From: Candidatus Poribacteria bacterium
GTDB lineage: Bacteria; Poribacteria; WGA-4E; JAJDTR01
Reading direction: 5' to 3'
NCBI GenBank assembly: GCA_965222225.1
Contig: CBDCTK010000002.1
Span: 3,392,001-3,456,000, forward strand
Length of the DNA: 64,000 nt
A program made the position numbers and the translations under genes. Under the pieces are notes generated by a model that was not told the DNA's origin, made no database searches, and saw only the letters and a list, made by a program, of their open reading frames with translations. Of this stretch, positions 4,657 through 60,435 are shown one piece after another. Position 1 is the first letter of the stretch; each line of letters opens with the position of its first letter.

Positions 4657-4800
4657 ATCAGGCGACTGGACAAGGAGCGATCAAACGAGTGGACAGCGAG
4701 TGCGATAGAGATCCCCCTCAAACGAGTGGATAACGATCAACCGACTGAATAAGGAGGGCGATAGCAAATCCCATGCGATAGAAATCCCCTATAGATTCCT
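4657..4800 (+). repeat. GA-hairpin element cluster (4 units, nested)
   Basis: Units start at 4657, 4680, 4718 and 4736; follows the truncated REP GTAGGGTACGCACTGCG (4640). Confidence 0.9.
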
Positions 4801-4913
4801 CTCCCGATCGCGACTTCTTGAGCGTTTGTAGAATCAACAGGTCGCATGAGGCGACTTCACCAGCCAAGAAGCAGCCAACAAAAATCTAGTATGACTCGCT
4901 GTTTCCCGCACCT

Positions 4914-7505
4914 TCATATTCTCGCGCGTCGGAAATCTATACGACGCAGCGCAATGTCTGCGAGCAACAGCAGTAGAGCAATTATGAGGAATGGTCGCCA
5001 GAGATGAATCCGAAGAACGACCGGCTGATCGGGGGAACGAAATGTGTCTTCAGGTAGGACGTTGAATCTGCCGCCGGACACCGCCGCCAGTTGGGTTAGG
5101 CGGGCTTCGTCGGCGTTGTGAACGAGGTATTCTTCCGGATAGGAAACCACAGTGCCGGTTACTTGCGTATGCACGACCTCGCCGCTCCGCTTCTGCATGA
5201 TGTTGACGAAATACGGTCCGACATCATTCGTCGAGAAATCAAGTTCATACCGCCCCGGAGCAGTCTGCGCCACCCCAAGTTGCTTCTTCTTCAGGTCAGG
5301 CGCGATAAGGGAGATGTCGCTCTCCAACTCGTTCAGAAAATCTCCGGTCTCACCAAGGGCGTCAATCGCCAGGTGTGCGTTTCCCTTCTCCTGCTTGATT
5401 TCCGCTTGAAAATTGCTCAGCGTTGTTTTGCGCATCGTGTCGCGCACCAACTGTGCCCAAAACTTGCCGTAACCTGGCCACTCCAACCAATCGGAAGCCC
5501 AACGCGCTTTGGCGTCGGAGGTGAAGGCGACAGATTTGCCCAAGCCGTACTGCCAACTTGCCAATAGTGGATCGCCGCGATCGGAGACGGGGAAAATTTC
5601 AGCCGTTGGTCGTGGTTGTGTGGCGACGTAGCCGAGTAGAAATGGTGCAACTTGAAGATCGATCCCGCTCAAGACCTGCGTAGGCTTGATGAGTTGAGGA
5701 ATAAACGGTTCATCAATGATTGCCGACTTTGATGCGGTTATGGTCTCCTTTGCAAAAATCTGCGGAATATTGTAAGGATCCTGCGTAACGTAATCGCGTC
5801 CGCCTCCCCAGTTGGCGAGGTTGCCCAGCAGATTCATGTCGGCACCGCTGCCGATGCCGACTGTGGAAATCGTGATGCGCTCCGCACGCATTGAACTCGC
5901 GATGCCGTACCAATCCCCGGGTTGTGACATGCCGTCGCTCAGAACGATGACATTTTTTAGCTTGGCATTCGTCTCCGTCAGAGCGAGATACGCTTGTTCG
6001 AGTGCGGGGTAGAGGTTCGTACCGCCGTTCGCAGTGATTGAACCTATCTGATCGGAGAGGTACAGCTTGTCCGAAGCGGAATGCATCTCGGCAATCCAGA
6101 ACGGCGAGCCGTCAAAAGCGACAACACCGATTTTGTCGCGTCTGCCCAACAGTTCTACCGCCCCGCGCGCCGCCTCTTTTGCCAACTCAATCTTGATGCC
6201 GCCCATGCTTCCCGACTTGTCAATCACTAGCACCATTGCCAGAGAAGGCGTTTCCTTTTTCTTCTCCGTGTCGGTACGGACAGGCAAGATGGCTTCAATC
6301 GGCGTTTTGTAGTAGCCTCCAAGTCCAAAACTGTTTTCGCTGCCCAACATCATGAATCCGCCGCCGAGATCCTGCACGTATGTGCGGATAAGCTCCATCT
6401 GCTTCTTGGTCAGGCGATTGGCAGGCACATCCGCGAACACGACAAGATCGTAGTTATGCAGGTCGGCAAGTTCGTCCGGAACTCCCAAGCCATTGCGGAC
6501 ATTAACGCGAATGTCGGCATCCTCGAGCGCCTGAGTTAGATAGCGCGCTTGCGGTTCGTTCTCGTCAATTAACAACACCTTCGATTTACCCGATACTACG
6601 ACAATGCCGAGTGCCCGATTGTTGTCGTAACGGGTGTCCTGCGTTGAGCGGGCAAGGGCATCAAAGGTTAACGTTCCGCTCTCCGTTGATGTCTGTGTAA
6701 ACAGCACCCGATTTTCGCCCGCAACCAAGCGAACCTCTTGCGTTGCGGCCTCGAATTTGTTCTTGAAAAGACGAATCTCCGCGATGTCCTCATGGTTGCT
6801 GTGGACAAGCACCTCCAAACTGAACGGCTCGCCCTGCTTAACTTGCACCGGAGCGTCAATCCGCTCCAGCATAACTTCCGGCTCATCACTCGGATAGAGT
6901 GGCACTGTGTCTATCTGTACGCCAAAGTCCTGCCCGCGATGTCCCGTGTGAATCGCATCTCCCTGCGTCTCCACGCCGTCAGTAACGAGAACAATCCGCT
7001 TATTCGCATTCGCCGGAAAAACACCCCACGCCATCTCGACCGCCTGTGCGATGTTGGTGGCGTCGCCTGCCTCCTCATCAGCTTCCAACCAAGACTGCTT
7101 GATTTCAGCAAGGTCCAGCTCATCTTCGGATTCAACGCGAAAATCTTTGAGTATCTCTGCCCTGTCCGTGAATCCAATGACACCCGCCTGCTGCCCTGCG
7201 CCTTGTGATTCCAGAGCTTCGTTGATATAGTCCGTCGACGTTTCTAAACCGATCGCCGAAATACTATCCGATATATCCGCCAGAAAGATTACCGCCAGTT
7301 CGTCGTCGGTCTTCAGGTATTGAAGATAGGCAACGCTCAGGATAAGCAGCACGACAATGATTGCTCTCATAATCAAGCTGACAATCCGCTGTGTTCGCGT
7401 CAGGTCCACGAGACTGCGGCGGTCGCCGTAGTATAGAGCGGGCAGCAGAAGAACCAGGAAAAGTAGAAATGGACGCGCGATTTCCATCGGTCTAAACCCG
7501 ATCAA
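4914..7505 (-). CDS. VWA-domain membrane protein with glutamine amidotransferase-like domain
   Basis: Two MIDAS motifs (DISDS, DKSGS), VLVTDG and VLSDG, GGGFMMLG, WQYGLGKSVAFTSD; N- and C-terminal TM helices. Confidence 0.85.
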   Translation of the reverse strand: MIGFRPMEIARPFLLFLVLLLPALYYGDRRSLVDLTRTQRIVSLIMRAIIVVLLILSVAYLQYLKTDDELAVIFLADISDSISAIGLETSTDYINEALESQGAGQQAGVIGFTDRAEILKDFRVESEDELDLAEIKQSWLEADEEAGDATNIAQAVEMAWGVFPANANKRIVLVTDGVETQGDAIHTGHRGQDFGVQIDTVPLYPSDEPEVMLERIDAPVQVKQGEPFSLEVLVHSNHEDIAEIRLFKNKFEAATQEVRLVAGENRVLFTQTSTESGTLTFDALARSTQDTRYDNNRALGIVVVSGKSKVLLIDENEPQARYLTQALEDADIRVNVRNGLGVPDELADLHNYDLVVFADVPANRLTKKQMELIRTYVQDLGGGFMMLGSENSFGLGGYYKTPIEAILPVRTDTEKKKETPSLAMVLVIDKSGSMGGIKIELAKEAARGAVELLGRRDKIGVVAFDGSPFWIAEMHSASDKLYLSDQIGSITANGGTNLYPALEQAYLALTETNAKLKNVIVLSDGMSQPGDWYGIASSMRAERITISTVGIGSGADMNLLGNLANWGGGRDYVTQDPYNIPQIFAKETITASKSAIIDEPFIPQLIKPTQVLSGIDLQVAPFLLGYVATQPRPTAEIFPVSDRGDPLLASWQYGLGKSVAFTSDAKARWASDWLEWPGYGKFWAQLVRDTMRKTTLSNFQAEIKQEKGNAHLAIDALGETGDFLNELESDISLIAPDLKKKQLGVAQTAPGRYELDFSTNDVGPYFVNIMQKRSGEVVHTQVTGTVVSYPEEYLVHNADEARLTQLAAVSGGRFNVLPEDTFRSPDQPVVLRIHLWRPFLIIALLLLLADIALRRIDFRRARI

Positions 7506-7653
7506 TTACGAGATTGAGGATTAAATGGCACTCACGATCGGCTTGTCTTGAAATCATTCAAATCAAAGAGCATCCAGTGTTAGTTACATCATTTCCATAG
7601 TTGTTTAGTTCGGTCCATAGAACCAGTCGGTTAGGATTCACGTATTTCGGTTT

Positions 7654-7679
7654 GTAGTAGTGCAATTCATTGCACGTCC
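7654..7679 (+). repeat. GTAG REP hairpin GTAGTAGTGCAATTCATTGCAC
   Basis: Identical copy at 46684; variants at 25248 and near 40674; stem GTGCAAT/ATTGCAC. Confidence 0.8.
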
Positions 7680-7754: not shown

Positions 7755-7831
7755 GGTCTGGATTGGCAAATCCAGACCATCAACCGAATGAACAGATCAA
7801 GCGACTGAATAAGGAGCGCGATTGGGATCCA
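7755..7831 (+). repeat. Palindrome GGTCTGGATT-GGCA-AATCCAGACC followed by 2 GA-hairpin units
   Basis: Related palindromes near 26598 and 36717; units start at 7779 and 7796. Confidence 0.8.
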
Positions 7832-7958
7832 CACGTTCGGATATGCTATTCCGACCAATTCGCGCGCATTATTCACAGGGATTGCGGCATGTCAGCGCAG
7901 ACATCAAAGCCGTAATAATTTGCTGCTGACACCTTTTTCCAAAATGAGCCGTCAGCTC

Positions 7959-9094: not shown

Positions 9095-11065
9095 TCACCA
9101 GAACTGATAAATCCAGAAAACGTAGGTCTGCGTCTTGAAGATTATACTTATCCCGTTCAACACGGTAACGACGACATACTCTCCCAACACTAAACCGATA
9201 AAGAACGGAATTGCCTTGCGGTACAACCTCAACCCGCCATACCGGATGAGAGCCAATTTGACGGAGGAACTCAGCACCAAGCAAAACCAAATGTAGTCCG
9301 TGCCAATAAGGTTGGTCGACAGGGCGTATCCTGCCGGGTGAAGTGGCCACCAGATGAACTGTCTTCGCAGGAACATTAGAAACAGGGTCAGCGTAAATCC
9401 TGCCCCCATTCCGCCAATCGCGGCGAAATTGGAGCCTGTTGGATTGCTCATCCGCGCGTCCAGTTGACTGTATATCACACCTCCAAACCATTTCAATGGC
9501 AGATTCAGGCGCCGGTAGCAGCCGTCAAGCATGATCCAGAAACTGACGATGGTGCCAGCAAAAATTGCAAGTATCATGGCTAGGGCAATCCGTTTTGTCT
9601 GCATGCCAGTTTGCTCAGCCATTTTGAACCCCTCAAGCTGATGCGGCATGGGATGGCTGCGCCAGGACCGGTTAAACCACCAAAACATGGAAAACATCGT
9701 CAAGTTGCCCGCTCCAAGTGGGCGCGTACCCATCACATCGGTTAATATATTCTGAGGTGTTACGTAGGTGAGTTCATGGAATGGAGGTCCCAACTCCGCT
9801 CTCATGCGTGCGATGGCGGTGGCAAACGCAAAGTACAGCGCAAAGAACAGGATGATGATACTGATTGACATGCCCGCCCGATAAGAAAAGAATAGCAAAA
9901 ACGTCCCACAACATAAAATTCCCATGATTCCCCATCGGTAAGATGAGGACTCTTGAGATTCATCCCGGGCGGCTTTGTTATTGAAAGCGTTAAGCGCCAC
10001 TTCCTTCAGATGTTTTCGGGTCATCCAGATCAGTACAACCGCAAAACCGATCCAAGCGCCGGAGGATTGTTCGTTGAGATAAGGAAAATTCGGTATACTC
10101 TGTAAACCGAAGGTAGCTGTGAGAACCCGCTGTACCTTCCGAAACAGATAGAAAAACCAGATGGAGAACGAGAGATCCAGCGGCAGGAAAAAGCTGAGAC
10201 CAATGATAAAGGGATAGAATGTGAAGGGCATCCAGCCGATTGCACTCCACGGCTTGGATGTGAATAGATGACCAATGTCATTAAACTTGATTGACACATG
10301 TGGCAGCGTCGGGAAGAAAAAGTTCAGACTGTTCATGATGTCAACGGAAGCCGCCACACCGAAACCTACCCACAGCATGCCGTTCTTGAAAAGCGATACC
10401 GAGCCGCCGTCTTTCGTAATTGTCAAGGGCAATTGAATGATGGGGTACACCAGTTTTTCCCTTTGCGTCCACTGCTTCTTCACCAGAATATTGATGCACA
10501 GCATCATCAATAACAGCGCGCAAATAAACGTCGACCACCATATGACTGGTCTCATCCATGCGGAAAGATTTCGGGTTGTGTACAACGTTGAATCCGCGTT
10601 GTAAAATCCATTGAGCACGCTCCTGTCGTTCACCGTCAGCCATTCCGGGATGTAAGCGAACAATTGATGCCACTCATTCTCTGGAGTAGCGAACCAAAAC
10701 AGATGGGAAATCCCCGCAAAAAGTACCTGTATGAAATCGTGGGAGGCGATGGAAACACCAAGGTTCAACATGATGAATATGGTGAGGAGCTCCCCTTGGT
10801 TTAGTGTCGTTCTCGGCGAAATCCTTCGGAGACAGAGGTTAATGAGAATGATGACCAGCAAACTGATAGTCGTATTCATGAACAACGATATCAGTGTAAT
10901 CATCCCGGAATACCATACCCCCTCTATCTGTATCACCCAGTAGACGTTGACCGGTAGAAGGATGATGCCAATCCATATTGCTCGCCAGGTCACGCCAACT
11001 GGTTGCAGATCGCTCCCACGAGTCAAGTCACCCGGAGATTTTTGACTATTGCGGGATTTGTCCAT
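9095..11065 (-). CDS. DUF6785/DUF6784-type multi-pass membrane protein (putative transporter)
   Basis: QWTQREKLVYPIIQLP, ARMRAELG, WPLHPAGY, LRLYRKAIPFFIGLVLG; paralogs at 29509 and 54539. Confidence 0.75.
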   Translation of the reverse strand: MDKSRNSQKSPGDLTRGSDLQPVGVTWRAIWIGIILLPVNVYWVIQIEGVWYSGMITLISLFMNTTISLLVIILINLCLRRISPRTTLNQGELLTIFIMLNLGVSIASHDFIQVLFAGISHLFWFATPENEWHQLFAYIPEWLTVNDRSVLNGFYNADSTLYTTRNLSAWMRPVIWWSTFICALLLMMLCINILVKKQWTQREKLVYPIIQLPLTITKDGGSVSLFKNGMLWVGFGVAASVDIMNSLNFFFPTLPHVSIKFNDIGHLFTSKPWSAIGWMPFTFYPFIIGLSFFLPLDLSFSIWFFYLFRKVQRVLTATFGLQSIPNFPYLNEQSSGAWIGFAVVLIWMTRKHLKEVALNAFNNKAARDESQESSSYRWGIMGILCCGTFLLFFSYRAGMSISIIILFFALYFAFATAIARMRAELGPPFHELTYVTPQNILTDVMGTRPLGAGNLTMFSMFWWFNRSWRSHPMPHQLEGFKMAEQTGMQTKRIALAMILAIFAGTIVSFWIMLDGCYRRLNLPLKWFGGVIYSQLDARMSNPTGSNFAAIGGMGAGFTLTLFLMFLRRQFIWWPLHPAGYALSTNLIGTDYIWFCLVLSSSVKLALIRYGGLRLYRKAIPFFIGLVLGEYVVVTVLNGISIIFKTQTYVFWIYQFW

Positions 11066-18488: not shown

Positions 18489-18606
18489 TCGTTATCGTTC
18501 CTTGATAATGCCAAGACCGAACACGTCAACAATGCTTATACCATTTCGCTTGAATTATGGCGCATATGATGTCTGAATTATATAGTTCACTTTCTCCGTA
18601 GGCGGC

Positions 18607-18670
18607 ATCAAGCGACTGAACAAGGAGCGCGATAGAAATCCCATAGCAAATCCCGTGCGATAGAGATTCT
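18607..18670 (+). repeat. GA-hairpin element plus two 3' fragments
   Basis: ATCAAGCGACTGAACAAGGAGCGCGATAGAAATCCC directly after GTAGGCGGC. Confidence 0.9.
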
Positions 18671-18760
18671 TTTGCCCCGTACTGGGTAAGATTTGATTAA
18701 CGCAACTAATCCACTGCAAATATAGAGAAATGGTATAAACACCGCCAATCAAGGCAATCC
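18671..18760 (+). repeat. Dispersed repeat of about 80 bp (3 copies: 18671, 19150, 58421)
   Basis: TTGCCC...TGG...GATT(A/G)ACGC...TAA...CACTG...AAAT(G/C)GTAT shared by all three copies. Confidence 0.75.
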
Positions 18761-18819: not shown

Positions 18820-19069
18820 TATAGTCATTGCAACTAAGAATTACACATGTGTTTATTAACATACCCAAATCCCCACCCATTCCCGTAGGTCGGGATCAAC
18901 CGAACGAATAGTGAGGGATCAAGGGAATGAAAAATGACCGCGATAGAGTTCCCATAGAGATCCCTTCCAGCCCGACCCGCTCAATGGGAAACGTCGCAAA
19001 CCGGGAGATTGTGAGCTAAGTCGAGTCAATCGACGCTCATATGTGTAAATATAAATGCAAACGACTATA
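18820..19069. mobile_element. Putative MITE with about 29-bp imperfect TIRs, related to 40553-40759
   Basis: Left TATAGTCATTGCAACTAAGAATTACACAT; right ATGTGTAAATATAAATGCAAACGACTATA; left end nearly identical at 40553. Confidence 0.65.
18895..18964 (+). repeat. Nested GA-hairpin elements inside the REP GTAG-GTCGGG...CCCGAC
   Basis: Units at 18895 and 18918; REP arms at 18889-18894 and 18971-18976. Confidence 0.9.
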
Positions 19070-19094: not shown

Positions 19095-19149
19095 ATCAAG
19101 CGAGTGAATAACAATCAACCGACCGGATAGGGAGTGCGATAGAGATCTT
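19095..19149 (+). repeat. GA-hairpin elements (2 units)
   Basis: Units at 19095 and 19114 after GTTCGTAGTAGAA. Confidence 0.85.
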
Positions 19150-19247
19150 CTTGCCCTGCTTGGGAAGGCTTGATTGACGCTATTAACGCACTGCGAATAC
19201 AGAGAAATGGTATTAACAATCAAAGCAAATTCTACGAAGGCTCAGGT

Positions 19248-24867: not shown

Positions 24868-25209
24868 TGTTGTATCTACCCTTGTTAGTTGTGGGGAAGG
24901 GTCCTAGCAAACCAAAATCTAGATATTGCGCAGGTGGAGGACGTATCGCAACACGGTGTCTTGCTTCTCGATCAGTTCACCACAGACTGCGGTGCAAAAG
25001 GCTTCTTTATGCAAACCGTGCTGTTTCGCGCCTTATCGCCACCCCAGATCTCACCCCTAACGAGTAGCCTTGGAACATACGCAACATAATTATAACTCTA
25101 GCACGATCAACGTTTTCTGTCAATGAAAATTAGCTCTCGATTCATCGTAGAGGACGGCCGCTGTGCCTTCCCATGCCGGTGATTTCACAATTCTCCCATC
25201 ACGTTTCCT

Positions 25210-25273
25210 GTCCTTCCATCCTTCCCCTCTTCCATCCTTCCCTCTTCGTAGTAGGACAATTCATTGCACGCCC
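25210..25273 (+). repeat. Pyrimidine-rich (T)CTTCC tandem repeat followed by a GTAG REP
   Basis: Similar tracts near 1201-1230, 37993-38025 and 54426-54455, and on the minus strand near 11129-11163. Confidence 0.6.
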
Positions 25274-26788: not shown

Positions 26789-26815
26789 ATATCTTTATCT
26801 AATCTGTGGGTTGGG

Positions 26816-26887
26816 ATCAAGCGAGTGGACAACGATCAAGCGAACGGATAGTGAGCGCGATAGCAAATCCCGTGCGATAGAAATCCC
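26816..26887 (+). repeat. Nested GA-hairpin elements inside the REP GTGGGTTGGG...GAACCCAAC
   Basis: Units at 26816 and 26835; uninterrupted REP homolog at 56612-56647. Confidence 0.9.
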
Positions 26888-26947
26888 ATAGAACACAGTG
26901 GAACCCAACTCCAACTTGAATACGACAACTTCCTTAAAGGCAATACA

Positions 26948-38038: not shown

Positions 38039-38074
38039 ATCAAGGAAGCGAATAGCGACCGCGATAGAAATCCT
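38039..38074 (+). repeat. Single GA-hairpin element truncating the REP GTAGTAGTG
   Basis: ATCAAGGAAGCGAATAGCGACCGCGATAGAAATCCT. Confidence 0.85.
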
Positions 38075-38106
38075 TTCTCCGCACATCTGGTCTATCGGCT
38101 TTTTGC

Positions 38107-40552: not shown

Positions 40553-40759
40553 TATAGTCATTGCAACTAAGAATTATACATTTAGGATTTATGCAGTGCG
40601 GTTTGTAGGAGCGATCAAAGGAATGAATAATGACTGCGATAGAGATCCCTCTCCGAATCGCGACCATGGGTTTATAGCAGCGCAGTTCATTGCGCGTCGC
40701 TTGGTGCTTCACTTACCTATAGATCGCAATATGTGTAAATGTGAAGGTAGATGATTATA
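40553..40759. mobile_element. Putative MITE carrying REPs and a GA-hairpin element
   Basis: Left TATAGTCATTGCAACTAAGAATTATACAT; right ATGTGTAAATGTGAAGGTAGATGATTATA. Confidence 0.6.
40614..40649 (+). repeat. Single GA-hairpin element inside the REP GTAGGAGCG|TCTCCGAATCGCGACC
   Basis: Removing 40614-40649 restores a REP like those at 26697 and 4190. Confidence 0.9.
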
Positions 40760-43852: not shown

Positions 43853-46540
43853 ATGGCACTACACCCAAACTTCCCTCAGTCCCCGCACGCAATTAGCGAC
43901 CCCTCGGTGCGCTGGTTCCCAGCCGACGAAGAACTGCGGGACACCGGCTACGGAAAACTCATTCCCCCACTCGTCCACAAAATCCGCGAAAAGGTCAAAA
44001 CGTGGCGAGAGGCCGGCTACGGAGAAGCTGCCGAAACCAGCAAATCCCTTCTCAACTGGTGGTTTAACACTCCCCATCTCATGGAAGGCGCCGATGGCGA
44101 AACCAGCGGATTCCAATACTACTTCGCCCAGAGAGAGGCGTTGGAGACCGTAATCTACCTGTACGATGTCATTAGGGTACAGGACAAATACGACTTAATG
44201 CGATTTGACAGTTCAGGCGCAATCTCAACCGGCATGTTTGATGAAGATTGGCGCCGGTTCGTGCTGAAGATGGCAACCGGCACCGGCAAAACAAAGGTGA
44301 TGGGCCTTGTCGTCGCTTGGAGTTTCTTTCACAAACTCTACGAACCCGACTCCGACCTGTCGCGCAACTTTCTGGTCATCGCTCCCAACATCATTGTGCT
44401 TGACCGTATCTATCACGATTTTCAAGGGCTACGCGTTTTCTTTGGCGACCCCGTGTTGCCCGACAACGGTTTTGACGGTCACAACTGGCGTGACGATTTC
44501 CAACTGACCCTGCATCGACAGGACGAAGTGCGCGTCTCCCGTGCCACCGGCAACATCTTTCTTACCAATATCCATCGGGTCTATTCTAGCGACCAAGCCC
44601 CGCCGTCCCCCGATGACGAAAACACGATGGACTACTTTCTCGGCAAACGACCCACGGGGGCAACCACGGATTCAAAGGTAGACGTAGGGGATATTGTCCG
44701 GGAGGTGGACGAACTCATGGTACTGAACGATGAAGCGCATCATATCCATGACCCGAGATTAGCATGGTTCAAATCCATTGAGGACATTCATAACCGCCTA
44801 CTGCAGAAAGGCGGCAAGCTATCGTTGCAAGTAGATGTCACCGCCACGCCCAAACACAACAACGGAGCGATCTTTGTCCAGACGGTGGCGGATTATCCGC
44901 TCGTGGAAGCCATCTCCCAAAATGTTGTCAAACACCCCGTGCTGCCCGATGCGCCGAGTCGAGCCAAGTTGGAGGAGCGGCAAAGCGCGAAGTACACCGA
45001 GAAATATGCGGACTACCTCGAACTTGGCGTCATCGAGTGGCGCAAAGCCTATGCGGAACATGAAAAACTGGGTAAGAAAGCCATTCTATTTGTAATGACC
45101 GACGATACCCGAAACTGCGATGAGGTCGCCGAATATCTCGAAAGCCGTTATCCCGAACTGAAAGATGCCGTCTTGGTGATTCACACACAGAGGAATGGCG
45201 AAATTTCTGAGGCAACTTCGGGCAAGAAGAAAGAGGAGTTGGGCGAACTGCGTAAACAGGCGAATGAAATTGATTCGATGGGGAGCCCCTACAAGGCGAT
45301 CGTATCGGTGCTGATGCTCAAGGAGGGATGGGATGTCAGGAATGTGACCACCATTGTCGGCTTACGCGCCTACTCCGCCAAGAGCAACATCCTGCCGGAA
45401 CAGACCTTGGGACGCGGGCTGCGCCGCATGTACGGCGAGGAAGTGAAGGAGTCAGTCAGCGTCATCGGCACCAACGCTTTCATGGAATTTGTCGAGTCTA
45501 TCCAAGCGGAAGGAGTTGAATTGGAACGCCAAGCCATGGGCGAGGGCACTGGCCCCAAAACACCGCTGGTGATTGAAGTGGACAAAGACAACCCCAGCAA
45601 AGACATTGACGCTCTAGATATCAGTATTCCTAAACTAACCGGGCGTGTTTATCGGGAATACAAGAATCTGTCCGAACTTGATGTGACGCGCTTCGATTTT
45701 ACCCCTGTGACCTATCGGGAGTTTAGCGAAGAAGAGCAACGGGAGATTGTTTTTAAGGACATGACGACGGGTGAGACGACGCATACCACACAGATGGATA
45801 GTGCCGGCATCGCGGATTATCGGAGTGTGATTGCCTACTTCGCACAGACTATCATGAAAGAGTTACGACTGGTCGGTGGCTACGACGCCCTATACCCCAA
45901 GGTACAAAGTTTCATTGAGAGCCACTTGTTCGGCAGATCGGTGGCGTTGGAAGACCCAAATACCTTACGCAATCTGTCAGAGGTTGCGGCAACAAAAACC
46001 GTATTCGATACCTTCAAGCGAGCGATTAACGACCTCGCAGTTCGGGACAAGGGTGACACAAAGATTAGCGATACTATCAAGCTGCGAAGTACGCGCCCCT
46101 TCGTGGTCAAAGACCAGCGGTACGTAGTGTCGAAAAAGTCCGTGTTCAACAGAATCACGGGCGATAATCAACTAGAACGCGACTTCGCCACTTTCTTGGA
46201 AAACTGCCCCGATGTCCTTTCCTACGCCAAGAACTACTTCGCGGTAAATTTCAAGCTTGATTATGTCAACGCCGATGGTGATATTTCCAACTACTACCCG
46301 GATTTCATAGTTAAACTCGCAGATGGCAGTGTAATCATCGCCGAGACAAAAGGTAGAGAAGATACCGATGTGGCACCAAAAATGCGCAGACTCGCCCAGT
46401 GGTGCGAAGATGTCAACAAAATTCACCACGAAGTTTCTTATGACTTTGTCTACGTTGACGAGGACAGCTTTCGGACGTACAACCCACACACATTTCAACA
46501 ACTGCTGGAGGGATTCACCGAATACAAAACCCGCGACTGA
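43853..46540 (+). CDS. res: Type III restriction enzyme Res subunit
   Basis: KMATGTGKT, NDEAHH, TATP, LKEGWDV, EQTLGRGLR, C-terminal YYPDF..ETKG nuclease motif. Confidence 0.9.
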   Translation: MALHPNFPQSPHAISDPSVRWFPADEELRDTGYGKLIPPLVHKIREKVKTWREAGYGEAAETSKSLLNWWFNTPHLMEGADGETSGFQYYFAQREALETVIYLYDVIRVQDKYDLMRFDSSGAISTGMFDEDWRRFVLKMATGTGKTKVMGLVVAWSFFHKLYEPDSDLSRNFLVIAPNIIVLDRIYHDFQGLRVFFGDPVLPDNGFDGHNWRDDFQLTLHRQDEVRVSRATGNIFLTNIHRVYSSDQAPPSPDDENTMDYFLGKRPTGATTDSKVDVGDIVREVDELMVLNDEAHHIHDPRLAWFKSIEDIHNRLLQKGGKLSLQVDVTATPKHNNGAIFVQTVADYPLVEAISQNVVKHPVLPDAPSRAKLEERQSAKYTEKYADYLELGVIEWRKAYAEHEKLGKKAILFVMTDDTRNCDEVAEYLESRYPELKDAVLVIHTQRNGEISEATSGKKKEELGELRKQANEIDSMGSPYKAIVSVLMLKEGWDVRNVTTIVGLRAYSAKSNILPEQTLGRGLRRMYGEEVKESVSVIGTNAFMEFVESIQAEGVELERQAMGEGTGPKTPLVIEVDKDNPSKDIDALDISIPKLTGRVYREYKNLSELDVTRFDFTPVTYREFSEEEQREIVFKDMTTGETTHTTQMDSAGIADYRSVIAYFAQTIMKELRLVGGYDALYPKVQSFIESHLFGRSVALEDPNTLRNLSEVAATKTVFDTFKRAINDLAVRDKGDTKISDTIKLRSTRPFVVKDQRYVVSKKSVFNRITGDNQLERDFATFLENCPDVLSYAKNYFAVNFKLDYVNADGDISNYYPDFIVKLADGSVIIAETKGREDTDVAPKMRRLAQWCEDVNKIHHEVSYDFVYVDEDSFRTYNPHTFQQLLEGFTEYKTRD

Positions 46541-46550: not shown

Positions 46551-46834
46551 TAGGACTTACGCATTTCGGTTTGTAGTTGCCCGAATCTGTAACTGTTTAG
46601 TTGAGTTCATAGAAGTGAGAAAAGGGGCCGCATGTTGTAGAGTACGCACCTCGCAGCAAACGTGTCGGCGTTAGGTCTGGTTCGTAGTAGTGCAATTCAT
46701 TGCACGTCCCAAGCAGGCATGTAATATCCCGATTCATCTAGTTCTGTCAACCGCTAGCGCAACAAGCATATTAATCCGTGCAATCCGCGTAATCCATTTA
46801 ATCCGCGATTCAGACAGTGTTTGCGTAAATCCTA
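46551..46834. mobile_element. Putative MITE with TAGGACTTACGCA TIRs, containing a REP (46684) and AATCCG short repeats
   Basis: TAGGACTTACGCA ... TGCGTAAATCCTA (12 of 13 match); related ends near 4252-4264, 7632, 26776-26788 and 40583. Confidence 0.6.
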
Positions 46835-47885: not shown

Positions 47886-47933
47886 TGTCAAGCAGCATAA
47901 GATGCTAAGAAGATTCTGTATGCTTTGAAACCG

Positions 47934-48004
47934 ATCAAGCGACCGAATAGGATCAAACGAGTGAATAACGAGTGCGATAGTGATTCCCGCGCGATAGAAA
48001 CCCC
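47934..48004 (+). repeat. Nested GA-hairpin elements inside the palindrome GAAACCG...CGGTTTC
   Basis: Units at 47934 and 47952; palindrome arms at 47927 and 48022-48028. Confidence 0.9.
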
Positions 48005-48207
48005 TTTTTTTCCTGAAAACTCGGTTTCTGCAAGCCGTCATTCCCGTGGGATGCGATCGGCAATCGTCAAATTCCTATCCCATTTATCTTCTTCTCAGTC
48101 CAAATTGAGAAAAAACGAATTCGAAAAGCACCATGTCTTAACTGATTACTGCCTTTACGATGCTGCCCACGCGTCGCAATACAATCTAAAATAAACAAAA
48201 TATCACC

Positions 48208-50463
48208 ATGCCACGACTCACTGAACAAGAACAACAAGAAATTCTCCGTTTCATTGAGGCGGACAAACCTCTCCCCGAGAAGTATCGCTTTCTGCTATTC
48301 GAGGACAAACGCGAGGTGGAGTTAGTCTGGAATAGCAAGACCAACGAAGTCTGCAACATCGTCCTCCCCTTTCAGTCAATTGAACTCGTGGATGAACCTC
48401 GCGCCGAAAAACCTGACGACACCAGTCCGTGGCTAGAGTTGTTCGATGAGCGCGGACGCCAACTCAAGGGCTGGACGAACAAACTGATTTGGGGCGACAA
48501 CAAGTTGATTCTGTCCTCGCTTAAGAATGGTCCCCTGCGCGAGGAGATTGAAGCCGAGGGTGGACTCAAGTTAATCTATATCGATCCCCCTTTTGACGTG
48601 GGCGCGGACTTTTCCATGAACATTGAAATTGGCGAAGACACCTTTACGAAAAAACCGAACATCCTTGAAGAGATTGCCTACCGTGACACTTGGGGCAAGG
48701 GATCGGATTCATTCATTGCTATGATTTACGAGCGCGTGGTGCTAATGAGGGATTTGCTAGCAGAGGACGGAAGTATTTACGTGCATTGTGACTGGAGAAT
48801 GATCGGTTATTTGCGACTAGTTGTCGATGAAGTCTTCGGACATGACCATTTCCAAAACATAATCACTTGGCGTAGAGGCCCTCAAAAATCACATGGATTA
48901 GGTTATGGACACAACGCCGACTATATAATTTACGGAACGAAAACGGATCGATTTGTCTGGAATATACAAACCGGTGAGTTGTCAGGTGAATACTTAGAAT
49001 CCTTCAAAGAAGATGAGTATGGAAAGTATGTTACCACCCCCCTTCACAGTGGTCGTCCACCAAAAATTGTACCAGAATGGCGAGGAGTTAAACCACCCTC
49101 AGGAAGGGGCTGGGCATACACAATTGAGACACTTGAGCATTTTGATAAAGAAGGCAAAGTTGAGTGGAGCAAGAATGGTATTCCCCGGTTAAAGCGTTAC
49201 TTAAGCGAGATAAAAGGTGCGGCAGTTCAAGAAATATGGACAGATATTAAACCACTATTAGCAAAGTCCTCATCACACGTCGGATACCCCACGCAAAAAC
49301 CGGAAGCCCTGATCGAACGCATCATCAAAGCATCGTCAAACGAAGGCGATCTCATTGCCGACTTCTTCTGCGGCTCCGGCACCACTGCCGCCGTTGCCGA
49401 AAAACTCGGGCGAAAGTGGATTGCCACAGACCTCGGTAAGTTCGCTATCCACACCACGCGTAAACGAATGATCGGCGTCCAACGTCAACTGAAAACCGAT
49501 GGCAAAGACTACCGTGCCTTTGAGATTCTCAACCTCGGCAAATACGAGCGCCAACACTATATCGGCGTCAATCCAAACCTGCGCGAGGTCGAACAGCAAA
49601 GGCAATTGGAGGAAAGAGAAAAGGAATTTATCAGCCTCATTCTGCGCGCCTATTCCGCCGAGAAAACCGACGGTTTCGCCGCCTTCCAAGGCGTGCGAGC
49701 CGGGCGGCTGGTGGCGGTCGGTCCCGTCAACCTGCCGGTCACCCGCCTGTACGTGGAGGAAATCATCCTCGAATGCCGCAAACATCGAATCACCCGTGTG
49801 GATATCCTCGGCTTTGAGTTTGAGATGGGGCTGTTCCCCAACGTGCTGGATGAGGCGAAAAACAAAGGCATTGACATCGCGCCAAAATACATCCCCGCCG
49901 AGGTGTTCGACAAACGGGCAGTGGAGCGTAATCAAGTGGTGTTCCACGACGTGGCGTTTATCGAAGTCAAACCGCATATTCACGCTCCGAGCAAAGCAAG
50001 TGCACTGCCAACCGTAGCCGTCGAATTGACCAATTTTTCCGTCTTCTACTCACAAGACTCCATCGCCCACGCCGAGCAGTCGCTCAGAACGAGGGGCAGC
50101 CGCATCGCCGTCGAAAAAGGGCAGATTGTCAAGGTGAGTCGAGATGCCAACGGCGTCTACACCCGCGAGGTGTTGACCAAGCATTGGACTGACTGGATTG
50201 ATTACTGGTCCGTAGATTTTGACTTCGAGAGCAAACGTGAAATTATCCGCGTCCAAGAGCCTGAGACCGGAGAGTGGGAGGAGCAGTGGACAGGCGACTA
50301 CATCTTTGAAAACGAGTGGCAGAGCTTCCGCACAAAAAAAGACCGCTCATTGGAGTTGACCAGCGTCGCTCACGAGTGCATTCCCGGCCGCCGCAAACTC
50401 GCTGTCAAGGTGGTTGACATCTTCGGTAACGACACAATGACGGTTCTGGAGGTGTCGGTGTGA
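48208..50463 (+). CDS. mod: Type III DNA adenine methyltransferase (Mod)
   Basis: IYIDPPF, YPTQKPEALIERII, DFFCGSGTT. Confidence 0.9.
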   Translation: MPRLTEQEQQEILRFIEADKPLPEKYRFLLFEDKREVELVWNSKTNEVCNIVLPFQSIELVDEPRAEKPDDTSPWLELFDERGRQLKGWTNKLIWGDNKLILSSLKNGPLREEIEAEGGLKLIYIDPPFDVGADFSMNIEIGEDTFTKKPNILEEIAYRDTWGKGSDSFIAMIYERVVLMRDLLAEDGSIYVHCDWRMIGYLRLVVDEVFGHDHFQNIITWRRGPQKSHGLGYGHNADYIIYGTKTDRFVWNIQTGELSGEYLESFKEDEYGKYVTTPLHSGRPPKIVPEWRGVKPPSGRGWAYTIETLEHFDKEGKVEWSKNGIPRLKRYLSEIKGAAVQEIWTDIKPLLAKSSSHVGYPTQKPEALIERIIKASSNEGDLIADFFCGSGTTAAVAEKLGRKWIATDLGKFAIHTTRKRMIGVQRQLKTDGKDYRAFEILNLGKYERQHYIGVNPNLREVEQQRQLEEREKEFISLILRAYSAEKTDGFAAFQGVRAGRLVAVGPVNLPVTRLYVEEIILECRKHRITRVDILGFEFEMGLFPNVLDEAKNKGIDIAPKYIPAEVFDKRAVERNQVVFHDVAFIEVKPHIHAPSKASALPTVAVELTNFSVFYSQDSIAHAEQSLRTRGSRIAVEKGQIVKVSRDANGVYTREVLTKHWTDWIDYWSVDFDFESKREIIRVQEPETGEWEEQWTGDYIFENEWQSFRTKKDRSLELTSVAHECIPGRRKLAVKVVDIFGNDTMTVLEVSV

Positions 50464-53804: not shown

Positions 53805-53809
53805 AGAGT

Positions 53810-54391: not shown

Positions 54392-54538
54392 CCGCATTCT
54401 CTTGAAGGGATGGCTGATTGTTAACCTTCCAGTCTTCCTCTCTTCCAATCTTCCGACCGACCAAACAAACAGGTTGTTTGGAAGATAAACCTCAAAACCA
54501 ACACCTGCTTTACACCCATAGGAGGCGCACAAACACGA

Positions 54539-56443
54539 TTGCAATCCAATAGTCAGGGACGATTTATCCGTCCAGTCATCCTCGGAATCATCCTGATACC
54601 GATCAACCTCTATTGGGTTATGCAAGCGGAGACCATCTATCGCCCCGTTTTTTCGACGCTCTTTACGCTCTTTTACAATGTTACGTTCAGTCTCTTTGTC
54701 TTGGTGATACTCAATGCCCTGCTAAAGAGATGTATCCCCAGCATCGCCTTCCACCCAAGTGAACTGCTGATTGTTTACGTGATGCTTTCCATCGCTACGG
54801 CAATTTTTGGGCACGATCTGATGCTGGTGATGATACAAAATCTCTCGGCTTTCTGGTTTGCGACGCCTGAGAATCAGTGGGCAGTCCTTTTCGGGAAGCA
54901 TCTGCCGCACTGGTTGAGCATGGTCGATGAACAAGCGCTCATCGGCTACCAGCACGGAGAATCCACACTCTATAACGAAATAAATCTCAAAGCTTGGCTA
55001 ATACCCGGGGCGTTTTGGGGCGGGTTCCTGATAATATTGCTCCTCGTACTGATCTGCATCAACACCATCGTTAGAAAACAGTGGACAGAAAATGAGAAGT
55101 TAGCTTATCCAATCATCCAACTACCGCTCGAGTTGGCGCGCGGCGGCACCGGACTGCTAGGCAATCGCGGGTTGTGGCTCGGTTTTGCACTCGCCGGCGG
55201 AATGGACATAATAAACGGGGTCCACGGAATCTTTCCGTCATTCCCAGCCCTGAAGCCGACCTACGATGTCACGCCGCTGTTTACCACCAAACCGTGGAAT
55301 GCCATTGGCTGGACACCGGTAGCCGTCTATCCCTTTGTGGTGGGGTTGGGTTACTTTTTGCCGTTAAATCTTTCGTTTTCCGCGTGGTTTTTCCACGTCT
55401 TCTGGAAGTCGGAGCTTATTTTTCGGAATGCGGTAGGAATTTGGAGCGTTCCGGGACCCTACAGGAGCTTTGAGACCGCTGGCGCTTGGATAGTCATCGC
55501 TTTCGTTGCGTTGTGGGGCAGTCGGAAATACCTAAAACAGGTTGCGGCTTGGACAATTCGCGGTCAACCGCCGGAAATCACGGCCGATGAGCCGATGACC
55601 TACCGAACCGCGATTGGGGGAATGCTGGTAGGGGGAGCCATTTTGGTGCTTGCCCTGAGTTACGCCGGAATGACTCCTTGGATAGCGATTCTTTTTCTGT
55701 TAATCTACATTGTCTATGCCGTAGCCATTGCCCGGATTCGAGCAGAGATTGGACCGCCCGCCCATGATGCGGAATGGATAGGGCCCGAAATGATGCTCCT
55801 CAACAGTTTAGGCGCACGAACAGTAGGGCAACGAAACATCGCGCTGTTCAGCCGCACCTACTGGATGAGCCGCGCGTACCGTTCTCACCCCGTCGGTCAC
55901 CAACTGGAAGGCTTCAAAATCGCACAATCCGTTGGGGCGTCGAGTCGTGGCTTTCTGGGAGCAATGGTGATTGCCATCGTCGTCGGCACCATCGCCGGAT
56001 TTTGGGTGTTTCTGGATAGCATGTATCGGCATGGCGCGTTGAATGTCTATCACAATATTTCCAATGAGTCGTTCCGCCGTCTCGAAGTTTGGTTAGAAAA
56101 CCCGCTGGAAGGAAACAATCAAATGCTCATGGATGTCGGGCTAGGTGCGGGCATAACGATTGTGTTGACGCTGCTTCACCAGCGCTTCGTCGGCTTCCCA
56201 TTCCACCCTGTCGGTTATGCCGTCGCCTGTGGATGGGTATTTAGCGTCGCCTGGGCTTCACTTTTTTGTGCATGGCTGATTAAATGGTGCATCCTGCGAA
56301 TCGGTGGAATTCGACTCTATCGGAAGGCAGTCCCCTTTTTTGTGGGCCTCATATTGGGACAGCATGTGATCGGCGGGTTATGGACGATTTTCGGCGAAAT
56401 TCGGGGCGCTCATGTGCATCAGTTCTTTCCCTACGCTTTCTAA
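54539..56443 (+). CDS. DUF6785/DUF6784-type membrane protein, paralog 3
   Basis: Very similar to 29509-31404 (GPPAHDAEWIGPE, YRSHPVGHQLEGFK). Confidence 0.75.
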   Translation: MQSNSQGRFIRPVILGIILIPINLYWVMQAETIYRPVFSTLFTLFYNVTFSLFVLVILNALLKRCIPSIAFHPSELLIVYVMLSIATAIFGHDLMLVMIQNLSAFWFATPENQWAVLFGKHLPHWLSMVDEQALIGYQHGESTLYNEINLKAWLIPGAFWGGFLIILLLVLICINTIVRKQWTENEKLAYPIIQLPLELARGGTGLLGNRGLWLGFALAGGMDIINGVHGIFPSFPALKPTYDVTPLFTTKPWNAIGWTPVAVYPFVVGLGYFLPLNLSFSAWFFHVFWKSELIFRNAVGIWSVPGPYRSFETAGAWIVIAFVALWGSRKYLKQVAAWTIRGQPPEITADEPMTYRTAIGGMLVGGAILVLALSYAGMTPWIAILFLLIYIVYAVAIARIRAEIGPPAHDAEWIGPEMMLLNSLGARTVGQRNIALFSRTYWMSRAYRSHPVGHQLEGFKIAQSVGASSRGFLGAMVIAIVVGTIAGFWVFLDSMYRHGALNVYHNISNESFRRLEVWLENPLEGNNQMLMDVGLGAGITIVLTLLHQRFVGFPFHPVGYAVACGWVFSVAWASLFCAWLIKWCILRIGGIRLYRKAVPFFVGLILGQHVIGGLWTIFGEIRGAHVHQFFPYAF

Positions 56444-56461
56444 ATTGTACTACTTAAATCC

Positions 56462-56647
56462 GTAGGGTGCGCACTACGCACCAGCCTTTGTAAGTGTAAG
56501 CGGCAATCGAGCGAAAGAATAATGAGCGATCAACTGAGTGGTTAACGAACGCGATAGGAGATCTTGGTAGAGTTCCAACAGAGATCGCAAGGCGATGAAA
56601 TCCCATAGCTTCTAGGTTGGGTTGAACGTAGTGAAACCCAACTCCAA
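56462..56647 (+). repeat. REP, degenerate nested GA-hairpin cluster (56506-56608), and a second REP
   Basis: GTAGGGTGCGCACTACGCACC; units at 56506 and 56529; TAGGTTGGGTTGAACGTAGTGAAACCCAAC. Confidence 0.85.
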
Positions 56648-58281: not shown

Positions 58282-58348
58282 CGCATACATCAACCATTAT
58301 GTTCACCGGTAATACCATTTCGCTGCACACCAAACTCGGTTGACGGGG

Positions 58349-58420
58349 ATCAAGGGAGTGAATAACGACCGATCAACTAACTGGACAAGGAAGGCGATAG
58401 TAAATCCCGATAGAGATCCC
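58349..58420 (+). repeat. Nested GA-hairpin elements
   Basis: Units at 58349 and 58372, 3' remainder at 58409-58420; flanks CGGGG / CCCCG. Confidence 0.9.
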
Positions 58421-58539
58421 CTTGCCCCGCGTTGGAAAGACTCGATTGACGCTATTAATGCACTGTAAATATGGGGAAATCGTATAAATTTCCGTAACAC
58501 AATAGCACGGCAAATCCGCCTCATGAAGGAGAATGACTT

Positions 58540-59085: not shown

Positions 59086-59457
59086 ATGACCGGAACACAG
59101 CAACAAATCACCGAATCATTGATAACCGATCTTCAGAACGGAACCCTCACCGAAGCCCGATTGCGCCAGAAAATCGCTGCTATCGCGACGGAAACGGAAA
59201 AAAAACGCCAGGACATTCTTTATCTACAGGTTGGAACAACATCCCCCGCATCGCAAGTGGTCGGCATGACGTACATAGAGGCCGGTGTCCTCAAAGAAGC
59301 ATCTTCCGACCCAAACGAATGGCAATATCAGACAGTGCTCAACGCCGTTCAGAGCGGTTGGCGGATCATCTCTTTTCCCAACATGGCGCTATTAGCCATG
59401 TCCGACGAAGAATCCTACGGCCTCGGTTTTGAGTTTATTTTGGAACGCTGGAGGTAA
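59086..59457 (+). CDS. Hypothetical protein adjacent to PhyH
   Basis: AAGGA RBS, ORF ending 3 nt before PhyH; YQTVLNAVQSGWRIISFP. Confidence 0.65.
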   Translation: MTGTQQQITESLITDLQNGTLTEARLRQKIAAIATETEKKRQDILYLQVGTTSPASQVVGMTYIEAGVLKEASSDPNEWQYQTVLNAVQSGWRIISFPNMALLAMSDEESYGLGFEFILERWR

Positions 59458-59460
59458 ATC

Positions 59461-60306
59461 ATGAAACCATCCGAGATGAAAACCTACGATTGTGAACCAA
59501 CCCTGACCGATTCGCAGGTGGTGGAATTTTGCACGAACGGCTATCTGATGCTTGAGGGTGTGGTATCCGACGAAACCAACCGCCGGTCGATGGACTACTG
59601 CGACGAGTATTCCAATCACGAGCCGAGCGGTATTCTACAACAAGGCTGGTTCGTGGAGGATGTCATCATCAATCCGGTCGCAGCCGGTGCCGTGCGGTCG
59701 CTGTTAGGGACGAACTTTCACTTGCCTATACTGATGAGTAACCACCGCGTTCCCTGTCCGCAGGGCCCCACGCACTGGCACGTAGACGGAAACTACAAGC
59801 ATCAATATGAGTTGAATTTCCTCCAAGTTTTCTACTATCCTCAAGATACGCCAATTGAAATGGGACCGACGCAGGTTCTGCCGGGATCTCACCTGATACG
59901 AAATAAGGCGCGATTCATGTGTCATCTAAGCGGGATTCGTGGAGCAATCTCGACCGCCGCCCCAGCAGGCTCTATTTTTCTCACGGTGTATCACATTTGG
60001 CACCGCCGCGGTCCCTCGACGGCGACGGCCATGCGAAACTTGCTCAAATACTTCTACTGGCGCACAACACCGCCCAAACGCGACTGGGTAATTGAACCGG
60101 ATTTCGACTTTGCGACTGCCCGTTACGGTGGCCCCGGGCAAAACTATTCCGAACAGTTTCGCGATACGGTAAAGGTTGCCGAGACGTTCTTGTGGCTCTG
60201 CGGCAAGCATGAGTCCTTTCGGAATTTGGGCGGACAGAGTTGGCCGCTTCCCGCGAATCGGATTGATCTCCCTTATGGCTTTCCCGAAGGTCTCCCGCAG
60301 CCCTAA
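59461..60306 (+). CDS. PhyH family dioxygenase
   Basis: FCTNGYL, WHVD, GPTQVLPGSH, IWHR. Confidence 0.9.
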   Translation: MKPSEMKTYDCEPTLTDSQVVEFCTNGYLMLEGVVSDETNRRSMDYCDEYSNHEPSGILQQGWFVEDVIINPVAAGAVRSLLGTNFHLPILMSNHRVPCPQGPTHWHVDGNYKHQYELNFLQVFYYPQDTPIEMGPTQVLPGSHLIRNKARFMCHLSGIRGAISTAAPAGSIFLTVYHIWHRRGPSTATAMRNLLKYFYWRTTPPKRDWVIEPDFDFATARYGGPGQNYSEQFRDTVKVAETFLWLCGKHESFRNLGGQSWPLPANRIDLPYGFPEGLPQP

Positions 60307-60365
60307 ACCGCAAAGAGTCGCTGCTCATATCCACTAGCGTTTGCGCAATGTGGCTCGTATTAGCG

Positions 60366-60435
60366 ATCAACTGAGTGGATAACGAAGGAGCAACTGACCG
60401 ATAGGGAAGGCGGTAGAGATCTCATAGAAATTCCC
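60366..60435 (+). repeat. Nested GA-hairpin elements inside a TAGCG...TGCTA hairpin
   Basis: Units at 60366 and 60389, remainder ATAGAAATTCCC. Confidence 0.85.

Follow-up and report, generated by a model that had tools for sequence, protein, structure and literature searches.

A GA-rich hairpin repeat in a Poribacteria chromosome is oriented independently of transcription and tends to lie on the C-rich strand

We analyzed a 64-kb stretch of the chromosome of a sponge symbiont belonging to Candidatus Poribacteria (hereafter the window; G000:C2:3392001-3456000, where G000 is a 5.70-Mb assembly in two contigs with a GC content of ∼0.50 and C2 is its 5.6-Mb chromosome), along which a short GA-rich hairpin repeat, the GA-hairpin element, recurs many times. 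A preliminary description had placed 15 loci of this element on the plus strand, irrespective of the direction of the surrounding genes, and had tied their polarity to replication; on the scale of the chromosome, we find that the orientation of the element is independent of transcription and anticorrelated with replication-type GC skew. Within the window, a loose regular expression for the 23-nt unit of the element, applied to both strands, gave 23 plus-strand and 0 minus-strand matches (the match at 52319 falls within a gene and is probably due to chance). An nhmmer profile of 685 copies taken from the rest of the genome gave 24 matches at an E value of <0.01, all on the plus strand, and 41 plus-strand matches and 1 minus-strand match at an E value of ≤10, the lone minus-strand match (E = 4.2) probably being due to chance as well. 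These matches group into 14 hairpin-unit loci and one remnant at 33749-33787 that has unit B only, and they recover the same 15 places and coordinates as before, with no minus-strand copy in the window in either search; a direct-repeat search of the window likewise returned a 47-nt family of 14 copies together with related families, all on the plus strand. According to an open reading frame (ORF) and codon-usage caller that we built for this analysis and ran with no annotation (4155 calls, 80% coding), minus-strand genes occupy 1 to 24.9 kb and 29.5 to 37.6 kb of the window, and plus-strand genes occupy 25.4 to 29.5 kb and 38.2 to 64 kb. The loci thus sit among genes of both directions, antisense to their neighbors in one part of the window and sense to them in the other, and the indifference to gene direction that had been described here is upheld.

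In each locus, a 23-nt unit A is repeated n times and a 12- to 18-nt unit B is then repeated m times, and the minimal form of the element is 35 nt long. Unit A comprises the linker (G)ATCAA and a 17-nt hairpin, N1N2-GA-N3N4-GRAYA-N4'N3'-GA-N2'N1', which reads as 2 bp, GA, 2 bp, a pentaloop, 2 bp, GA, and 2 bp; unit B consists of GCGATAG, a few bases, ATCC, and often ATAG. The loci in the window, some of which adjoin repetitive extragenic palindromic (REP) sequences, are as follows.

4655-4799, plus strand: GA-hairpin locus 1, about four A units and three B units, its 5' side fused to a truncated GTAG-type REP (nhmmer E = 1.3e-12 and 7.5e-11)
7779-7835, plus strand: GA-hairpin locus 2, two A units and a degenerate B unit (E = 2.8e-07)
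18605-18676, plus strand: GA-hairpin locus 3, one A unit and two to three B units, then the 65-nt module D12 (E = 1.3e-10)
18892-18971, plus strand: GA-hairpin locus 4, two A units and B units (E = 7.3e-10)
19095-19153, plus strand: GA-hairpin locus 5, two A units and one B unit, then module D12 (E = 2e-11)
26813-26893, plus strand: GA-hairpin locus 6, two A units and two B units, between plus-strand genes (E = 3.3e-11)
31835-31880, plus strand: GA-hairpin locus 7, one A unit and one B unit, downstream of a GTAG REP and a GC-rich hairpin head (E = 5.6e-11)
33749-33787, plus strand: remnant with B-type units only, family D10, the weakest of the 15 loci (nhmmer E = 0.93)
37741-37842, plus strand: GA-hairpin locus 9, A unit(s) and three B units (E = 1.9e-09)
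38036-38080, plus strand: GA-hairpin locus 10, minimal form with one A and one B unit, preceded by a CT-octamer array and GTAG (E = 8.1e-11)
40611-40660, plus strand: GA-hairpin locus 11, minimal form nested in a GTAGGAGCGATC-type REP (E = 1.9e-12)
47932-48010, plus strand: GA-hairpin locus 12, two A units and two B units (E = 1.7e-12)
56503-56600, plus strand: GA-hairpin locus 13, two A units and degenerate B units, downstream of a GTAG REP (E = 9e-09)
58346-58425, plus strand: GA-hairpin locus 14, two A units and two B units, then module D12 (E = 6.2e-08)
60363-60441, plus strand: GA-hairpin locus 15, one to two A units and degenerate B units (E = 2.8e-05)

Module D12 (72 to 78% identity among its copies at 18677-18741, 19154-19218, and 58426-58490) lies directly 3' of three GA loci, on the same strand in each case, and may be an additional component of a composite element or something resembling a promoter.

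The fold of unit A is conserved on one strand. Among the window's 22 units, 88.6% of cells are paired versus 53.8% in shuffles (0 of 500 reach the observed value), the covariation score is 0.944 versus 0.285 when shuffled (0 of 500), all four pairs have changed on both sides, and slid registers pair in 20 to 49%. Over the whole genome, 90 to 96% of 939 full units are paired (Watson-Crick or G:T) at the four stem positions, a figure that falls to 48 to 77% when 3' arms are swapped between units, and some ten stem pairs recur commonly. The full units contain 382 G:T pairs against 82 A:C pairs, and the GA-rich strand is therefore the strand whose fold is preserved. Of 1216 extracted units, 489 have GAATA as their pentaloop and 307 have GGATA. 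The hairpin foot is preceded by the ATCAA linker and not by the GTAG or GTGG tetranucleotide of REPtron repeats, GTAG being confined to the other REPs into which many loci are nested; the ATCAA linker is the reverse complement of TTGAT, the target given for ISDra2 in PMC2806898, a match that may be a coincidence and that we treat as a lead.

Defining a strict locus as at least one A unit plus at least one B unit, we found 693 such loci on the chromosome, 663 of which are intergenic according to our own gene calls, at a density that is very uneven along its length. The preliminary description had named numerous minus-strand copies as the observation that would speak against polarity: the regular expression finds 0 of them in the window, whereas genome-wide the strict loci are divided into 379 plus and 314 minus, and nhmmer unit matches are divided into 644 plus and 501 minus. 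Complete polarity is a local feature, of which the window, with its 0 minus-strand copies, is the extreme case, and it gives way genome-wide to a polarity of about 70% (489 of 693 loci concordant with the corrected skew introduced below). Orientation is clustered regionally (243 runs versus 344 expected in a runs test over the 693 loci; z = −7.8); 60 to 71% of neighboring loci share a strand at every spacing up to 30 kb, a share that drops to 50% at wider spacings, and the window lies inside the longest same-strand run of the chromosome (23 loci, C2:3371761-3475336). Among overlapping 64-kb windows with at least 8 loci, 31 of 273 are fully polar, and the median majority fraction is 0.77. The chance of 2 × 0.5^15 that had been put on the pattern in the window needs independent loci, an assumption that fails, since a locus lies on the same strand as the previous one with a probability of 0.65.

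Transcription does not account for the orientation of the element. Of the loci between tandem genes, 248 are on the same strand as the genes and 214 are on the other (P = 0.12), and between convergent and divergent genes the strands are even (44 versus 45 and 56 versus 56, respectively); on the tandem counts we rejected a transcription-linked orientation. The same counts speak against an element acting at the RNA level, as a terminator, an mRNA stabilizer, or a sponge for a GGA-loop-binding protein, with its strand set by transcription, which we consider very improbable. The hairpins do tolerate G:U-type pairs, and about a third of the loops (353 of 1216) are GGATA or GGACA, GGA loops that resemble those bound by CsrA and RsmE, but the commonest loop, GAATA, is without GGA, the window copies are all on the plus strand among minus- and plus-strand genes alike, and a search of the whole window at the Rfam gathering threshold returned 0 matches to any family.

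Because the coding strand is itself G rich (about +0.056), we separated a replication-type term, R, the transcription-corrected GC skew, calculated as the mean of the skews of plus- and minus-strand genes within ±25 kb. All element matches were masked before skew was computed, and throughout this work the G-rich strand is assumed to be the leading strand. Orientation is negatively correlated with local GC skew (r = −0.32 to −0.36 for half-windows of 2.5 to 100 kb) and with R (r of about −0.35 per locus). Over the 693 loci, 99 are plus and 209 are minus where R is >0, and 280 are plus and 105 are minus where R is <0; in the upper half of |R|, the corresponding counts are 48/122 and 142/34 (plus/minus, as in all paired counts given below for regions of R > 0 and R < 0). 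Per 50-, 100-, or 200-kb bin, Spearman's rho ranges from −0.44 to −0.77 across coding-only, intergenic-only, and raw skew, and none of 27 to 111 circular shifts of the skew profile gave a value as low as that observed. The negative correlation means that the GA-rich strand tends to be the C-rich strand. A composition artifact was also considered and rejected; the elements were masked, and they are G rich on their own strand, which would push the correlation the opposite way. The earlier proposal that polarity is tied to replication and not to transcription is accordingly borne out insofar as gene direction is irrelevant and R correlates with orientation, but the polarity is partial, and the switch at the replication origin and terminus that was expected with it is not seen, as discussed below.

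The preliminary description had set REPs, which it found in both orientations, against the GA element as an unpolarized contrast, and this contrast is lost at the scale of the genome, where REP families are polarized in the same way. The GTAGGGTG-type REP (REP1) is more strongly polarized than the GA unit (19/69 where R is >0 and 82/24 where R is <0), also at more than 150 nt from GA loci (13/33 and 46/16); the GTAGGTTGGG-type REP (REP3) gives 12/26 and 31/11, CT-octamer arrays give 5/15 and 28/7, and the canonical hairpin-plus-tail repeat described below gives 3/14 and 19/15. The GTAGGAGCGA-type REP shows polarity as a whole (30/43 and 58/25) but none that is significant away from GA loci (18/21 and 25/16; P = 0.26), while the GTAGGGTG-type REP, the GTAGGTTGGG-type REP, and the CT-octamers stay polarized at more than 150 nt from them. 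Polarity shared by so many families is therefore a property of the genome's whole repeat population. In the window, CT-rich octamer arrays (CCTTCC..) are found at 1201-1231, 25196-25242, 37986-38024, and 54425-54455, and such arrays often lie directly upstream of a GTAG REP or a GA locus; a GTAG-type REP family, D14 (GTAGTAG followed by a GTGCAAT..ATTGCAC hairpin), has four plus-strand copies there, at 7649-7679, 25243-25273, 40669-40699, and 46679-46709.

GA modules are often nested, in the same orientation, in GTAG-type REPs or in the canonical hairpin, which raises the question of whether their polarity is merely passive. The module might have no coupling to replication of its own, insert in a fixed orientation into existing REP heads, and spread locally, and its strand pattern would then copy that of the host repeats together with the shared inversion history of chromosome segments; we judge this reading to be unlikely. 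Many loci start inside truncated REPs or the canonical hairpin and are always co-oriented with them, REP1 exceeds the GA unit in polarity even away from GA loci, and the same-strand correlation of neighboring loci reaches ∼30 kb, all of which speaks for a passive origin. The polarity of the host repeats would still need a cause, however, so that the question is only moved; furthermore, many GA loci in random samples are without a recognizable REP head, and GA units far from strict loci are still polarized (10/16 versus 35/10).

The genome also offers a candidate enzyme. Pfam Y1_Tnp has 5 matches in G000, among which one is a clearly intact IS200-like gene (C2:3080255-3080728) with a 157-aa product. 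This gene has A-B units on one side, pointing at the gene, and their reverse complement on the other side, and a decayed Y1 copy (C2:3560325-3560519) has the same inverted A-B/B'-A' arrangement. As in a REPtron, a single-copy Y1 gene lies between inverted copies of a dispersed repeat, and that repeat is a high-copy, mostly intergenic hairpin; the link to HUH single-strand chemistry that the preliminary description had drawn from known transposons is strengthened by this inverted flanking of an IS200-like Y1 gene. The Y1 protein carries the motifs HIH and YIKNQEAHH, scores 65.8 bits on the NCBIfam IS200 model NF033573 (above its cutoff of 55), and scores 30.6 bits on the RAYT model NF047646 (below its cutoff of 80), and its best solved relatives are the TnpA proteins of ISDra2 and ISHp608 (E = 5e-6 to 3e-3). 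Subclass 1.2 TnpA_Y1 proteins are described in PMC6006769 as having Y---Q--HH, a low copy number, and no insertion sequence (IS) properties; the protein studied here has Y---Q--HH with an HUH motif and is present as one intact copy plus fragments with no IS-like multiplication, and judging by its sequence it fits that subclass.

Orthologues of this gene connect the GA element to a more widespread repeat. The three closest (87 to 91% identity) are flanked by the same GA element, and more distant ones, from Poribacteria and from records titled Acidobacteriota, Verrucomicrobiae, Ignavibacteriales, and Bacteroidota, have inverted flanking copies of a 5-bp, GC-rich hairpin with the tail GA.A.GT.TATAG, which we refer to as the canonical repeat. 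Among the 79 orthologous loci with both flanks, 42 have an inverted match of at least 18 nt around the gene, in most cases the canonical repeat, and 20 have a direct match that long. At the intact G000 gene, the GA module lies between the canonical hairpin and its tail, and unit B looks homologous to that tail; the GA element therefore looks like an expansion within the repeat that is cognate to this subclass of transposases. The canonical hairpin and tail are too scarce for a polarity test in a more distant Poribacteria chromosome (G004), where there are only 31 exact matches and most of these form 51-nt tandem arrays. Head-to-tail arrays of the canonical repeat with a 51-nt period are found there at G004:C1:99905-100422 and 4909447-4909774, and one array in this genome adjoins a Y1 gene locus (L013).

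The pattern for the GA unit occurs 430 to 1064 times per genome in 10 of 10 genomes of the genus (1064 times in the closest relative of G000, the congeneric G001), 117 to 166 times per genome in four genomes of a second genus that belongs to another family, and at most 15 times per genome in 27 other genomes of the order, while a reversed-pattern control gave 0 to 3 matches per genome, with 10/19 in one genome. Evidence of mobility comes from one intergenic site (site 122) at which filled and empty orthologous sites in G000 and G001 differ by exactly the 35-nt minimal unit; this was the only clean case among the 8 + 5 G000/G001 candidates inspected, the rest being defeated by intergenic divergence, and at two of them (sites 151 and 376) an ATCAA-like word stands at the putative empty site, which is ambiguous. 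This distribution bears on the idea that the arrays are sites for a replication or segregation factor, comparable to KOPS, Chi, or primosome-assembly hairpins, whose orientation relative to the fork is kept by selection and does not stem from the way in which copies insert. That hundreds of copies are kept in all 10 genomes of the genus would be expected of such sites, as would a structure conserved on one strand, and the degree of polarity (∼70 to 76%) resembles that of Chi in E. coli. We nevertheless hold a selected host function to be rather improbable: copies flank a transposase gene in the manner of a REPtron, copy number differs by more than 2-fold among genomes of the genus and sister genera have almost no copies, density along the chromosome is very uneven, orientation does not flip cleanly at dnaA, and unrelated repeat families have the same polarity.

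Taken together, we incline toward the view that the GA element is a REP-like, nonautonomous family that a domesticated subclass 1.2 Y1 protein, encoded by a single-copy gene, generates and mobilizes as single-stranded DNA in a REPtron-like system. Its polarity could then arise if copies were gained and lost at replication forks, where DNA is single stranded. Because the folded strand is found more often on the C-rich strand, presumably the template of the leading strand, we favor strand-asymmetric loss as the most economical model: copies whose folded strand is exposed on the lagging-strand template would be removed by Y1 excision or by hairpin-slippage deletion, and copies in the other orientation would persist and accumulate. 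The polarity may be shared by all Y1-dependent repeats of this genome, many copies being nested in co-polarized GTAG REPs. The sign could also reflect an inverted assignment of the leading strand, or activity of the complementary strand.

Several observations weigh against this interpretation. The preference of IS200/IS605 elements for the lagging-strand template, on which the original argument leaned, is reversed for the GA element: 489 of 693 loci have their folded strand on the C-rich strand, hence presumably on the leading-strand template if the G-rich strand is the leading strand, and those same 489 loci mean that concordance with R is partial. The strand switch that had been predicted at the origin and terminus is not seen. 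Full-length dnaA (C2:2610389-2610874, minus strand) lies at a negative-to-positive change of skew, whereas element orientation changes at ∼2.42 Mb; a two-replichore model anchored at dnaA and the opposite point was rejected for lack of polarity (227 plus/190 minus versus 152 plus/124 minus in the two halves), and skew itself changes sign at least eight times, with element orientation following the skew patches instead of two replichores. Markers of the leading strand are mixed under the assumption that it is G rich, since 33 of 47 tRNA genes (17 of 25 clusters) and the L16 gene are on the G-rich strand and the 16S rRNA gene and rpoC are on the C-rich strand. Nearest-neighbor single-stranded DNA folding of four whole loci on both strands performed no better than shuffles (z = +1.4 to −0.9), as might be expected of very short stems with noncanonical GA boxes, which the energy model may not credit. 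REP1, REP3, and the CT-octamers have a polarity equal to or stronger than that of the GA module, and part of the GA signal may be inherited from host repeats. Finally, catalysis by the putative Y1 system, its cut sites, and its coupling to forks are steps that we infer.

The second genome gives a weaker version of the same pattern and must be counted among these reservations. We sampled G001 in 80 stretches of 20 kb, 69 of them around places of one stem subtype irrespective of strand (100 of 111 such places listed) and 11 filling gaps, which yielded 396 loci (172 plus and 224 minus). Raw skew gave almost no signal (76/110 versus 96/114), and corrected skew gave one of the same sign (66/140 where R is >0 and 106/84 where R is <0; Spearman correlation of −0.24 and P = 0.03 over the 80 stretches) that is weaker than that in G000 and based on a noisy skew estimate. 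As an independent test G001 is limited, because it is close kin and its loci are partly shared by descent. Two further observations concern chromosome organization in this genus. A second, shorter DnaA-like gene (G000:C2:602775-603212, plus strand; open frame of 393 aa, 136 bits on Bac_DnaA) recurs in each of the four congeneric genomes (G000 to G003), far from full-length dnaA. The many sign changes of skew are accompanied by synteny between G000 and G001 that is broken into many inverted blocks, which points to frequent rearrangement, or to assembly joins, in these repeat-rich genomes.

A broader proposal, which we put forward tentatively and regard as doubtful, is that all Y1-dependent hairpin repeats of the genus, the GA module through the subclass 1.2 protein and the GTAG REPs through RAYTs, are either inserted or removed at forks, with a polarity that is the reverse of that of IS200/IS605. 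If true, this would be the first genome-scale evidence of REP-type systems acting on single-stranded DNA at forks in vivo. The mobility of REPs has long been debated, what is documented being in vitro cleavage by one RAYT, and the sections of PMC3333891 and PMC6006769 that deal with REP movement merely suggest an involvement of lagging-strand-template DNA. A repeat family that follows replication skew and ignores transcription provides a genomic handle on this question, as does the like behavior of the GTAG REPs in this genome. Subclass 1.2 Y1 proteins, which have so far been without a function and were described without a substrate, would gain a candidate REP-like one (a GC hairpin with a GA.A.GT.TATAG tail) in several phyla. 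The sign opposite to that of IS200 suggests that strand-biased loss, and not insertion, may shape the census of high-copy nonautonomous families.

Other features of the window stand apart from the repeats discussed above. A 300-nt direct repeat (86% identity; 32884-33183 and 33864-34163) lies within adjacent 253-aa minus-strand ORFs (32913-33674 and 33893-34654) that look like tandem paralogues. A ResIII helicase-type gene (43853-46540) and an N6/N4 DNA methylase gene (48208-50463) are near each other and are likely a type III restriction-modification pair, and two large paralogous proteins with DUF6785 and DUF6784 are encoded at 9095-11065 (minus strand) and 54539-56443 (plus strand). In the last ORF (62795-63958), the motifs NNGDGTF.D and D.D.DG..D recur with a spacing of ∼160 to 230 nt (families D6 and D9); we take them to be FG-GAP/VCBS-type repeats of a large secreted protein.

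Among known systems, the closest is the REPtron of REP, BIME, or REPIN repeats with a RAYT, which according to the relevant parts of PMC6006769, PMC3333891, and PMC3116915 shares with the GA element short hairpin repeats in hundreds of intergenic copies, compensatory stem changes, an occurrence of repeats singly, in clusters, and nested, a single-copy Y1 HUH gene between inverted copies, and families restricted to a genus. The differences are that the GA-element protein is not a class 2 RAYT (30.6 bits, cutoff of 80), that the foot is ATCAA and not GTAG or GTGG, and that the GA hairpin is tiny (2 + 2 bp with tandem GA boxes and a pentaloop) and stands in tandem with a second type of unit. Subclass 1.2 TnpA_Y1 (Quentin et al. 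2018) is alike in its Y---Q--HH motif, its low copy number, and its proximity to IS200 TnpA without IS behavior; in the section of PMC6006769 devoted to it, the subclass is generally without typical terminal IS200 structures and mostly cyanobacterial and Bacteroidetes, whereas here inverted hairpin-plus-tail flanks are found in 42 of 79 loci from several phyla, with a genus-level link to a family of ∼700 loci. Class 3 TnpA_Y1, which PMC6006769 places between IS and REPtron and reports from Planctomycetes and Acidobacteria, similarly has an IS200-like Y1 gene flanked by small, atypical hairpins that are present in many copies (about 600 copies with a CnGA foot in Solibacter usitatus) but differs in its foot sequence and in its motifs (NHVH and YV..EQ there versus DHIH and YIKNQ here).

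IS200/IS605 elements such as IS608 and ISDra2 have in common with the GA element a Y1 HUH enzyme, recognition of single-strand hairpins, and an orientation bias relative to replication and not to transcription, their copies being described as co-oriented with fork movement through use of the active strand on the lagging-strand template (PMC3971601, PMC2806898, and PMC6006769 for the enzyme and the hairpins; PMC3971601 and PMC6006769 for the orientation). They are unlike the system described here, in which the flanks are inverted copies of one repeat and not a distinct left end and right end in direct orientation with subterminal hairpins on one (top) strand, the gene is single copy where an IS has several, the element is nonautonomous and 35 nt long or slightly longer, and the folded strand lies on the C-rich strand, giving the opposite sign. 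KOPS and Chi, host motifs recognized by FtsK or RecBCD-type machinery, flip at the origin and at dif/ter and are spread evenly over the replichores; the GA element has many switches of orientation, none of them exactly at dnaA, and a very uneven density. Small dispersed repeats of cyanobacteria, mobile modules of 20 to 40 nt nested in other repeats, may be a further likeness. The portions of PMC6006769, PMC3333891, and PMC3116915 that treat REP, BIME, and REPIN repeats report no replication-strand polarity, and it is on this basis that we call the polarity new; PMC3333891 contains neither "orientation bias" nor "direction of replication", and among 15 of 652 papers matched, none joins RAYT or REPIN with replichore, leading strand, or GC skew, which is no proof of absence. 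Thus, REP-like repeats associated with a Y1 HUH gene are of a known kind, and what is new in this system is the transposase subclass, the 35-nt tandem GA-box hairpin module, its nesting in other REPs, and a replication-type polarity common to the REP families of the genome.

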